DNA of 64,000 bases from Podarcis muralis (Eukaryota): positions 107,322,001 to 107,386,000 of the forward strand of contig NC_135656.1 of the NCBI RefSeq assembly GCF_964188315.1, in the 5' to 3' direction. Shown here in pieces: positions 16,392-19,691 of this stretch. The first letter of the stretch is position 1. Every line of letters starts with the position of its first letter. A program made the translations under genes and the position numbers. Below the pieces are notes generated by a model. That model saw only the letters and a list, made by a program, of their open reading frames with translations. It was not told where the DNA came from and did no database searches.

Positions 16392-16446
16392 ATGGTTGGG
16401 GCTCTGCTCTTTGCCGTTTGTTCCCTTGCTCTGCTTGAATCCGGGG
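16392..16446 (+). CDS. Secreted three-finger (Ly6/uPAR) protein, exon 1 (signal peptide)
   Basis: ATG..MVGALLFAVCSLALLESG + G|gtaagt; 55 nt, phase 1, as in Ly6/3FTx signal exons. Confidence 0.88.
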
Positions 16447-16454
16447 GTAAGTCC

Positions 16455-16455
<1 letters not shown>

Positions 16456-16503
<48 letters not shown>

Positions 16504-17051
16504 TTTATTTATACCCCGCCCATCTGGCTAGGCCTCCCCAGCCACTGTGGGCAGATTCCCAAAAAATATTAAAATACTGTAATACATCAAACATTAAAAG
16601 CTTCCCTAAACAGGGCTGCCTTCAGATGTCTTCTAAAAGTCAGATAGTTGTTGTTCTCTTTGGCATCTGGTGAGAGGGCGTTCCACAGGGAGGGCGCCAC
16701 TACCGAGAAGGCCCTCTGCCTGGTTCCCTGTAACTTGGCTTCTCGCAGTGAGGGAACCGCCAAAAGGCCCTCGGTGCTGGACCTCAGTGTCCGGGTAGAA
16801 CAATGGGGGTGGAGACGCTCCTTCAGGTATACTGGACCGAGGCCGTTTAGGACTTTAAAGGTCAGCACCAGCACTTTGAATTGTGCTTGGAAACGTACTG
16901 GGAGCCAATGTAGGTCTTTCAAGACTGGTGTTACATGGTCTCGGCGGCCGCTCCCAGTCACCAGTCTGGCTGTCACATTCTGGATTAGTTGTAGTTTCCG
17001 GGTCACCTTCAAAGGTAGCCCCACATAGAGCGCATTGCAGTAGTCCAACTG
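16456..17051 (-). mobile_element. L2 LINE 3' fragment in intron 1 of the three-finger gene
   Basis: LDYCNALYVGLP...LHWLPVRFQAQFK...LFREAFNV; (TTA)n tail at 16456-16503. Confidence 0.92.
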
Positions 17052-17117
17052 TGTGTTACACAAGGCAGCAGACCTTACAGCAAAAGCGAGGAGGCCTCAC
17101 TCTGCTTTCTTCCCCAG

Positions 17118-17231
17118 AGAGTATCAAATGCAACACTTGTCTCATGAAGAGTCCCGATGCCGAGTGCATGACTGGGGTCGAAGGCTGCATGTCTCAGGGA
17201 GAAAAATGCATGACCATCCGCATCAGCCAAG
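17118..17231 (+). CDS. Three-finger protein, exon 2
   Basis: ttcttccccag|AG...CAA G|gtaagg; 114 nt, phase 1-1; ESIKCNTCLMKSPDAECMTGVEGCMSQGEKCMTIRISQ. Confidence 0.9.
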
Positions 17232-18273
17232 GTAAGGGACCCTGGTCTGGTTGCCGCATCATTCAGAAGCGGCTGAATGGAGCAGGGAGAACCTGCAGCT
17301 CTTCAGGTGCTGCAAGACTACAACTCCCACCATCCCTGACCATTGGCTGGGGCTGATGGGAGTTGGAGTCCAACGACATCAGGAAGGCCACAGATTCCCT
17401 GCCCCAGGTCCAGAGTCTCTCAAACTGTGATCTATGTATGGCCCACTCAGGGCCTGCAAGCTCCTTTTAGGCATACCTTTGACTCGTGGAACAGTCAGGA
17501 ATATCTCTGCTGCCAGACGATGGAAATTGTGGCCATATGAACCGGGGCAGCACTTATTGAGCAGGTTAACTAACACGGGACTGAAGCCTGTGTTTTCTGT
17601 ACGTCACTGGTGCAATCTAACAATTCCCCCTTAGACCTTTTCTGGTCCTTCTCAGCAGCCTGGCCCAGGGCACTTGATTTTCATAATATGGGACTGGTTT
17701 TAGCAGTGATGCTGATGCTTTGTGTGTGTGTAGTTTCTTAAGTCGCCCACGCACACAAAAAGAGACAGAGGCTGTGTCCACACTCCCATCTACTGCTGTT
17801 CCAAAGCTGTTTTTTTTTTAAATGTGTTCACATGTCACAATCCAATATGCATAGGTATCCTGTGCTTTGCTGTAAAAGATACTGCTGTTTCTTAAACCAG
17901 CCTCAAACTGATTGGAATTCTTACGGCGCTCCTAATTCCTCTCCAGACCCGGTGCAAACACCTTTTGCATAAGGTAAAGGCAACCCTGTCTGTCGACACC
18001 CCCTGGTACATAGAAATCAGAAGAATTTTTCATTAAGTTAGCCCAATGTGGTCTGCTCTGCATCCAGCATCCCATTGCTGCTGGCTTAGAAAGTGATGAA
18101 CACAAAGCCACAAACCACATTTCTTTTATCTATCCTGCTGTTTCTTAGGAAACAGCTTTGATCTGAATCAAGACAACAAAGGAGCATAAAGAGTACACCC
18201 TAGCTGCATTTTAAGCCTGCAATGTATACACAGCATAGCACAGTGGTTAGAGCATCAGATTATCTCCACAGAG

Positions 18274-18786
18274 CATAGGAGCCAACTTCTAGGAGCCAAG
18301 GTCCCTTCCCCAAAAAAATATTTTTGGGGGGGCTGGGCCCACCAGAGTTAATGGGCATTGCCATTCAAATCGTGTACGTGCAGCATGTCATGTGATCGAT
18401 TATGTGGGGCAGGGCTTACCTGCCCCCCCATGCCGGATTTATGTATAAGCTAAACAAGCTATAGCTTAGGGGCCCCACACTCTTGGGGGCCCCAAAAAAA
18501 GTTAAAGGGGAAAAAATCTGGATGTACATTTCCAAAATATAAGATAAAAAACAAATAAAATAAAACCTTACATACAGCAACAGTGTCAAATGGCTTTAGA
18601 TACCTATTAGGTCCATAAATTACCATATAGCATATATTCAACACAAAAAAACAGCAACAATTTGTTGTTGACAAAAGACAGCTGGACATATAAAGGGCCC
18701 CATAACCTTCAGTAGCTTAGGGACTCATCAAACCTCAATCCGGCGCTGCCCCCACCCCCAATATTTTATTCGAGTTGGCATTACTG
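18274..18786. mobile_element. Nested MITEs: outer CATAGGAGCCAAC family, inner hAT CAGTGCCGGATTT family (18429-18748)
   Basis: Outer element matches 62845-63316; inner element matches 22112-22539 and 61639-61998. Confidence 0.7.
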
Positions 18787-18885
18787 CCACTGCTTCTCAG
18801 CCTAGCCTACCTCACAGGTTCTAGAGTCAGGCAGGTAGCCATGTTGGTCAGACGCAGTCTAAATATATAAAAAAATAAACAATAA

Positions 18886-19245
18886 AAAAAATGTCCAGTA
18901 GCACCTTAGAGACCAACTAAGTTTGTTCTTGGTATAAGGTTTCATGTGCATAGGTATCTGAAGAAGTGTGCATGCACACAAAAGCTTATACAGTGGTACC
19001 TCGGGTTAAGTACTTAATTTGTTCCAGAGGTCTGTACTTAACCTGAAACTGTTCTTAACCTGAAGCACCACTTTAGCTAATGGGGCCTCCTGCTGCCACC
19101 AGAACACAATTTCTGTTCTCATCCTGAAGCAAAGTTCTTAACCTGAAGCACTATTTCTGGGTACATACCTGAAGCGTATGTAACCCGAGGTACCACTGTA
19201 CCAAGAACAAACTTAGTTGGTTTCTAAGGTGCTACTGGACATTTT
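18886..19245. mobile_element. Inverted pair of Penelope-like termini with a family-A MITE (18991-19198) inserted
   Basis: Arms GTCCAGTAGCACCTTAGAGACCAACTAAGTTTGTTCTTGGTATAAG and its near-perfect reverse complement; MITE sits at a TA. Confidence 0.75.
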
Positions 19246-19563
19246 GTATTTTTATTTTATCTATTCCTACCCCACAGGCTTGTTGTAAGGATCAGAGGAG
19301 GAGAGGAGGAAAGGAGGAACTATGTGCGCAGCCTTGAGCTCCCTGCAGGAAAGCTGGGACAGAAATATGAGAAATTAAATGAATAAACGTATGACTATGC
19401 AGGCATGGGATAGCAGAGGGGTGGGAGCACCTTAAGAGGCTGGGGTGAGTCAGGAGGAAGTTTACAAGCCCAGAGCTGGTTCTGGCTGCTGCAGTGAGAG
19501 GCTGGAGGGGCCGCGGATGCCAAACTTTCCCTACTTTCCCTTCTTCTCCCGCCCCACCCACAG

Positions 19564-19691
19564 ACGGAAAGGAGAAATTCAGGATTCTGGGCTGCACCAG
19601 ACAGAAGAAAAAAGGCTGCGGCGTAAACAAGGAGTCGCACGGCCACCAGGTCAGCATCCGATGCTGCTCTTCGGATTACTGCAACGTCTAG
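19564..19691 (+). CDS. Three-finger protein, exon 3 (ends CCSSDYCNV-stop, no GPI signal)
   Basis: Pyrimidine tract then cacag|AC, phase 1; DGKEKFRILGCTRQKKKGCGVNKESHGHQVSIRCCSSDYCNV*; the CCxxDxCN Ly6 signature. Confidence 0.92.

Follow-up and report, generated by a model that had tools for sequence, protein, structure and literature searches.

The 64,000-nt stretch of Podarcis muralis DNA analyzed in this study (the window; contig NC_135656.1, C2:107.322–107.386 Mb) contains a three-exon LY6G5b-like gene at 16392–19691 on the forward strand; of the genes in a tandem array that has undergone expansion in wall lizards, this focal gene is the one most like LY6G5B. Its protein is identical letter for letter to RefSeq XP_028569578.1 (“LY6G5b-like,” P. 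muralis), and the RefSeq/GenBank records for three Podarcis species differ from it at 0 (P. muralis), 4 (P. raffonei) and 2 (P. lilfordi) of 98 residues. The focal gene is thus an annotated, uncharacterized member of a known LY6G5B-like kind, and its family assignment, taken alone, can be held with high confidence. A preliminary description of the locus had reported the gene as absent from the list of open reading frames, which is true of the gene as a whole because it has introns, but it is not unannotated; that description had also named a known, annotated ortholog as an outcome against its own proposal, and the RefSeq/GenBank entries show that the gene model is indeed not new. The new part of the finding is a roughly 50-gene expansion of such genes. 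No published account of the focal gene or of the arrays was found in the literature searched, the coverage of which excluded most subscription papers.

The gene model is as follows. The 5′ untranslated region (UTR) extends at least over 16351..16391 (contigs of the sequencing runs X13 and X7 start at 16351 and 16354, respectively), and is followed by the 55-nt coding part of exon 1 (16392..16446), which encodes the signal peptide and ends at a phase-1 donor, GTAAGT. Intron 1 (16447..17117) holds a (TAA)16 repeat at 16455–16503 as well as high-copy interspersed repeats. Exon 2 (17118..17231; 114 nt), covered by spliced contigs, encodes the end of the signal peptide and the first five LU-domain Cys, and is separated by the 2332 nt of intron 2 (17232..19563) from the 128-nt coding part of exon 3 (19564..19691), with the last five Cys, the motif CC-x4-CN, one further residue and the stop codon TAG, and without a glycosylphosphatidylinositol (GPI) signal. 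Both introns are GT..AG and phase 1, giving a 297-nt frame without an internal stop that encodes 98 amino acids. The 3′ UTR (19692..20277) contains AATAAA at 20025 and 20254, and these motifs, together with the end of an X13 contig, place the likely poly(A) site near 20277.

Four public runs (X1, X4, X7, and X13) were examined for this model, which were taken as RNA by guess only and are plausibly RNA because spliced joints are present in them. The joint of exon 1 to 17118 and the joint skipping the 2332 nt of intron 2 both occur in contigs of X7 and X13 (two of the four runs), the joints coming from two studies, and the three exons are joined in a single X13 contig of 322 nt. No reads on exon 1 were found in the raw-read runs X23 and X21, which is no test of expression. 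The GPI signal of Ly6 genes is encoded in exon 3 (PMC4839075, part of text), and no splicing beyond the CN motif was seen in contigs of X1, X4, X7, and X13; contigs of X1, X4, and X7 run straight through the stop codon, and those of X13 cover 19562–19675 and 19677–20277, the latter ending 18 nt past the AATAAA at 20254. The break between these two contigs at 19676, the third position of an Asp codon, has the pattern of a heterozygous site and is probably not a splice. Exon coordinates, frame and spliced contigs agree with the preliminary description, which had proposed three phase-1-linked exons, a 98-residue precursor and a stop directly after CN-V (the stop lies one residue past CN); splicing past CN into a GPI-signal exon, the other outcome it had set against its own proposal, was not seen.

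By profile, Cys pattern, exon layout and fold, the focal protein is a member of the Ly6/uPAR (LU domain) superfamily. The whole protein matches PF00021 with 36.5 bits against a cut-off of 24.8, the two LU exons taken singly giving weak matches, and the layout of signal peptide in exon 1 and domain in exons 2 and 3 is that by which Ly6/uPAR genes are defined (PMC4839075, part of text). Signal-peptide cleavage is predicted after about residue 20, a site placed by alignment and hydropathy, so that the ten mature Cys stand at 3, 6, 15, 22, 29, 47, 55, 70, 71, and 76, ending CC-x4-CN. The tail past CN is a single residue, compared to the hydrophobic tails of 25–31 residues in 11 of 21 control exons; the protein thus lacks a GPI tail and is predicted to be secreted. 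The mature protein has an isoelectric point (pI) of 8.7, a net charge of about +5 and an RQKKK patch, which in the alignment is missing from the Pogona and LY6G5B relatives. This patch had been described as preceding Cys8, but precedes Cys7 of the mature domain and is before Cys8 only when Cys10 of the signal peptide is counted.

A first model built from a 3-sequence alignment reached a predicted local distance difference test (pLDDT) score of only 35, and the AlphaFold2 model used here, with a pLDDT of 73, is a three-finger fold, predicted to contain five disulfides. Its best fold match by VIA-align is the LU domain of GPIHBP1 (Z 8.9, root-mean-square deviation 2.5 over 73 residues), the only row with Z ≥8, and the top 38 rows are all three-finger folds. 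Toxins matched at Z ≤6.9 (irditoxin 6.9, bucandin 6.2) and SLURP1/SLURP2 at 3.9–4.9. A Foldseek search with the model gave no match at E 0.001, and searches of PDB sequences returned only weak matches to PSCA, CD59, and GPIHBP1. The Cys positions, PF00021 match, fold model and one-residue tail therefore bear out the earlier view that the gene encodes a three-finger protein with ten Cys, a signal peptide and no GPI anchor, and the structure prediction suggested at that time has GPIHBP1 as the nearest fold.

The nearest named relatives of the focal protein, as judged by sequence, are mammalian and turtle LY6G5B. Searching 1.84e9 proteins with phmmer at E 0.001 gave 15 matches, all of which were traced: the protein's own Podarcis cluster, an uncharacterized Pogona protein (40%), LY6G5B of platypus, possum and rabbit, a turtle LY6G5B-like protein, an alligator C9orf57 homolog, three P. 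lilfordi paralogs, one unnamed protein, two fish LU proteins and two false matches (P0006 and P0017, rejected as relatives since they are cadherin proteins). No three-finger toxin (3FTx), SLURP or HEP21 appeared by name among the 15, and word-index homolog searches returned only members of the Podarcis cluster or of the query. When 48 assembled Podarcis LU domains were searched with an LY6G5B profile, the focal gene ranked first with 52.1 bits, followed by 42.0 for the next, and the nine genes of a cluster next to TOP1MT scored ≤4.2; three of four single LY6G5B(-like) queries also ranked the focal gene first. The Cys spacing is 2-8-6-6-17-7-14-0-4 in the focal protein and 2-8-6-7-17-7-16-0-4 in mammalian LY6G5B. 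In a tree of a 27-row subset with about 80 columns, the focal gene, two paralogs, Pogona and LY6G5B group together with a support of 81/81, which is weak; the larger tree omitted four rows of the array, namely an identical copy, two that were incomplete and one with a long branch. The homology and phylogeny checks called for by the preliminary description thus yielded LY6G5B matches but no named HEP21, SLURP or 3FTx, and a tree supported at 81/81 only. The likeness to LY6G5B and LY6G5C of the mammalian major histocompatibility complex (MHC) class III region extends to three exons, the lack of a GPI anchor and MHC linkage, and it may be inferred that the focal gene descends from the MHC-linked LY6G5 lineage.

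Several observations weigh against this descent. The reciprocal test is biased toward the focal gene because its queries were found with the focal protein, and the possum LY6G5B query favors the paralog at C2:107.730 Mb (36.7 bits, against 33.0 for the focal gene). Approximately unbiased (AU) tests of the focal gene with LY6G5B (p = 0.24) and with the TOP1MT cluster (p = 0.075) are neither of them decisive. In the alignment, mammalian LY6G5B has a C-terminal extension past the LU domain that the focal protein does not have, and LY6G5B/LY6G5C are a pair in mammals whereas the focal gene is one of about 30 tandem copies. By ESM Atlas features, C9orf57 and PATE ranked first, these also being small secreted LU proteins; the PATE-like cluster on C15 is separate from the focal gene, and the Cys6–Cys7 spacing is 3 in the two of its genes printed compared to 7 in the focal gene. 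At C15:13.73–13.83 Mb there are at least six GPI-less LU genes, which appear PATE-like. Mammalian LY6G5B adjoins CSNK2B, and in Podarcis CSNK2B is at C2:111.70 Mb and the focal gene at 107.34 Mb, 4.36 Mb apart. No LY6G5-like exon was found in the 300 kb searched around CSNK2B (C2:111.428–111.728 Mb), and with this distance a position adjoining CSNK2B, as in mammals, is ruled out for the focal gene. An intronless CSNK2B-like copy, likely a retrocopy, lies at C7:6,532,615–6,533,166 (−).

The focal gene is the leftmost, outermost member of its array. Within the 664 kb searched, 32 exon-2-like and 31 exon-3-like LU exons lie at C2:107.339–107.730 Mb, forming a 390-kb array of about 30 genes. All but three of the exon-2 copies (29/32) pair with an exon 3 within 7 kb, and ten Cys are kept in 27 of these 29; the three others are orphans, and two genes are incomplete. 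Tails past the last Cys measure 0–17 residues, none of them of GPI-signal form, and many of the genes end CC-x4-C-FD or C-L in place of CN. A crude exon-1 scan gave candidates at only 13 of the 32 exon-2 loci (two of them doubtful), and the remaining array genes are predicted to be secreted. The copies at 107.620 and 107.637 Mb encode an identical protein, and identical copies may be assembly duplicates. In P. lilfordi, the accession numbers from the first to the last array member span 32 entries, which fits about 30 automatic gene models there. A genome-wide Pfam search picks up just one of the roughly 30 genes. A second array at C3:23.005–23.193 Mb contains 21 confident exon-3 matches (of 23 listed) and 14 exon-2 matches (of 15) in 400 kb, equating to about 20 GPI-less LU genes, with tails all ≤10 residues. 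Retroelement frames (Gag matrix, copia-type and other long terminal repeat pol) lie inside or beside the array at L009:4836–5279, L054:257–4330, and L074:7262–10000.

Across seven independent paralog pairs, the proportions of non-synonymous (pN) and synonymous (pS) differences are 0.212 and 0.215, and aligned flanking non-coding DNA differs less than the exons, by 8.4%, a value biased low by local alignment. Single pairs show dN/dS ratios of 3–4.6, and one pair has 16 non-synonymous changes to 1 synonymous change; the pooled ratio is about 1 and not above it (Fisher p = 0.94). For the array as a whole, monophyly is compatible with the AU test (p = 0.40) but not established by it.

The surroundings of the focal gene point to the MHC. 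To its left are olfactory receptors, a TRIM-type RING exon and an L-amino acid oxidase (LAAO; LAO/IL4I1-type) gene, about 10 kb away and head to head with it, a reading frame of which, with the GxGxxG exon for flavin adenine dinucleotide binding, is at 5654..5935 (−), the remainder being left of the window; the last exon, at C2:107.313 Mb, matches LAAO structures (E 1.7e-82). Four LAAO-type last exons in total lie at C2:106.55–106.78 Mb and 107.313–107.328 Mb, one copy having an in-frame TGA in the matched stretch. To the right come a C2H2 zinc-finger exon of about 17 fingers (49511..51832, −), between the focal gene and the next LU paralog, then a TRIM gene and the other LU genes, which are followed by a carboxylesterase array and by PPP1R18. 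In the anole, PPP1R18 belongs to the MHC, on chromosome 2 (PMC9679377, part of text), and the focal gene lies in the MHC region. The carboxylesterase array, at C2:107,738,000–107,842,000 between the LU array and PPP1R18, consists of nine near single-exon frames of about 500 amino acids, possibly gland lipid enzymes.

In the part of the pheasant study available, the MHC-B order is Bzfp, IL4I1, TRIM7.1, HEP21 (3 exons, 107 amino acids) and TRIM39.2 (PMC5941149), and HEP21 is in another bird MHC gene list as well (PMC4988538, part of text). This order identifies the focal locus as the HEP21 neighborhood, with the TRIM genes compared by type and not as named orthologues, and the focal gene appears to occupy the same position as HEP21, which is likewise a secreted three-exon Ly6 gene of about 100 amino acids among MHC LAO/IL4I1, TRIM and zinc-finger genes. 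The comparison with HEP21 made in the preliminary description is therefore good by position. It counts against a closer identity that HEP21 is single copy in the pheasant table while the focal gene is in a tandem array and that, because HEP21 is absent from the 15 phmmer matches, orthology is positional only. Elsewhere on the contig, four of six LU genes at C2:110.7–111.0 Mb have GPI tails, and in this otherwise GPI-tailed LY6G6-like cluster two GPI-less genes are present at C2:110,990,800–110,992,100 (+) and 111,033,900–111,036,050 (+). From their resemblance, we take these two to be alternative candidates for the HEP21 sequence orthologue.

With regards to function, the focal protein is probably a secreted LY6G5B/HEP21-type three-finger protein acting as a soluble surface binder in reproductive-tract fluid, of the epididymis or oviduct, a reading we favor with some reserve. 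By analogy, it would be released by duct epithelium, and its finger loops may bind surface proteins of the sperm or egg coat. In the mouse, Ly6g5b and Ly6g5c are enriched in the epididymis, and animals lacking both are subfertile, with ADAM3 reduced in their sperm (PMC10506895, part of text), and HEP21 is an oviduct-secreted egg-white protein (PMC7071030); it is on account of these two roles that a protein of reproductive-duct fluid is favored. However, human LY6G5B is listed in stomach and placenta (PMC4839075, part of text), and the reproductive role is one proposed by analogy.

Alternatively, the focal protein and the array could serve as chemosignals of the skin or of femoral or cloacal glands, differing between individuals in an MHC-linked manner, which we consider unlikely. 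The number of GPI-less paralogs (about 30 plus 20), their pN and pS compared to the divergence of the flanking DNA, with one pair at 16:1, and the olfactory receptor and carboxylesterase arrays that flank the locus would all suit such a role, as would the amphibian three-finger proteins that work as pheromones (PMC13719153, part of text). The focal gene, however, is conserved within Podarcis (2–4 of 98 residues differ), the pooled dN/dS is not above 1, and the terms Ly6, uPAR, G5b and lymphocyte antigen were not found in the available part of the text and supplement of the sand-lizard femoral-gland proteome (PMC9000839), a negative that is weak because it depends on the names in the database used there. 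Less likely again is a cationic peptide of innate defense, which would act in mucosa or egg fluid by binding to the membranes of microbes. Although pI, charge and the RQKKK patch, the setting in an immune region beside LAAO and TRIM genes, and a table of a chicken MHC review that gives the immune role of HEP21 as “likely” (part of the review) agree with this, the activity is a prediction only, neither Pogona nor LY6G5B retains the basic patch, and several array paralogs look acidic in the printed exons.

The least probable of these functions, and in our view a very improbable one, is the modulation of nicotinic receptors by a SLURP-like protein or proto-toxin that bears on the origin of snake 3FTx. 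It would be in keeping with the shared fold and 10-Cys pattern, the fold-search scores of irditoxin and bucandin, the PF00087 match of the focal protein (24.5 bits against a cut-off of 21.2, for a profile common to non-toxins), and the AU test, by which a grouping of the focal gene and the TOP1MT cluster is not formally rejected. The LY6 cluster flanked by TOP1MT is the 3FTx-syntenic region (PMC10421932, part of text), yet in Podarcis the LY6 cluster adjoining a topoisomerase I gene, the name TOP1MT being inferred from that adjacency, is on a contig other than that of the focal gene (C8:3.60–3.88 Mb), and its nine genes form their own clade (97/98) without the focal gene. The Cys6–Cys7 spacing is 7 in the focal gene, as in LY6G5B, and 3 in the four TOP1MT-cluster genes printed. 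The PF21947 profile was below cut-off for exon 3 and not among the whole-protein matches at E 0.01, and neither 3FTx nor SLURP was among the 15 phmmer matches. Pre-3FTx is described as membrane-anchored, starting with MK and toxicoferan, with anchor loss common and convergent (PMC10421932, part of text), whereas the focal signal peptide begins MVG, not MK or MKT. SLURP1 and SLURP2 are secreted single-LU proteins with 10 Cys as well, but are genes of the human 8q24.3 cluster (PMC4839075, part of text), distant in fold score and without a sequence match.

Lacertids lie outside Toxicofera, and the earlier view of an apparently non-venomous host is accepted. Locus, Cys spacing, signal start and host thus separate the focal gene from snake 3FTx and pre-3FTx, with which it shares the fold, the 3-exon layout, the lack of an anchor and a tandem array with fast-changing exons, and the likeness is convergent. 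Of the claims in the preliminary description, relevance to 3FTx origins is therefore not upheld, and the layout it likened to SLURPs, HEP21 and 3FTx is the usual three-exon Ly6 layout, with HEP21 agreeing in position but no sequence match to SLURP or 3FTx. Two LU genes in the TOP1MT-type cluster on C8, at 3,630,700–3,635,900 (+) and 3,678,700–3,680,000 (−), have a third exon without a GPI tail (12 and 5 residues), and it is these, not the focal gene, that might be informative on how the anchor was lost in the 3FTx-syntenic region in a lizard outside Toxicofera.

Taken singly, the focal gene is ordinary, and the array, nearly missed by the genome-wide Pfam search and marked by this gene, is the part worth following. 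Through the focal gene, LY6G5B of the mammalian epididymis and HEP21 of the bird oviduct, the latter having been called “unique to poultry” (PMC7071030), become connected as candidate members of a single amniote lineage of secreted, MHC-linked Ly6 proteins. Rather tentatively, about 50 secreted three-finger proteins of wall lizards (about 30 encoded in the MHC and about 20 on a second contig) may form an undescribed radiation whose conserved anchor is the focal gene, one that derived from the LY6G5/HEP21 lineage without any link to the snake toxins, with exons diversifying as in toxins or pheromones, and serving sperm-egg recognition or MHC-linked scent in a way that would tie MHC type to mate or gamete choice. 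If such a role in gamete recognition or scent is true, the array would be a non-venom parallel to the 3FTx radiation, and its proteins would be concrete candidates behind lizard chemical signaling and MHC-linked mate choice.

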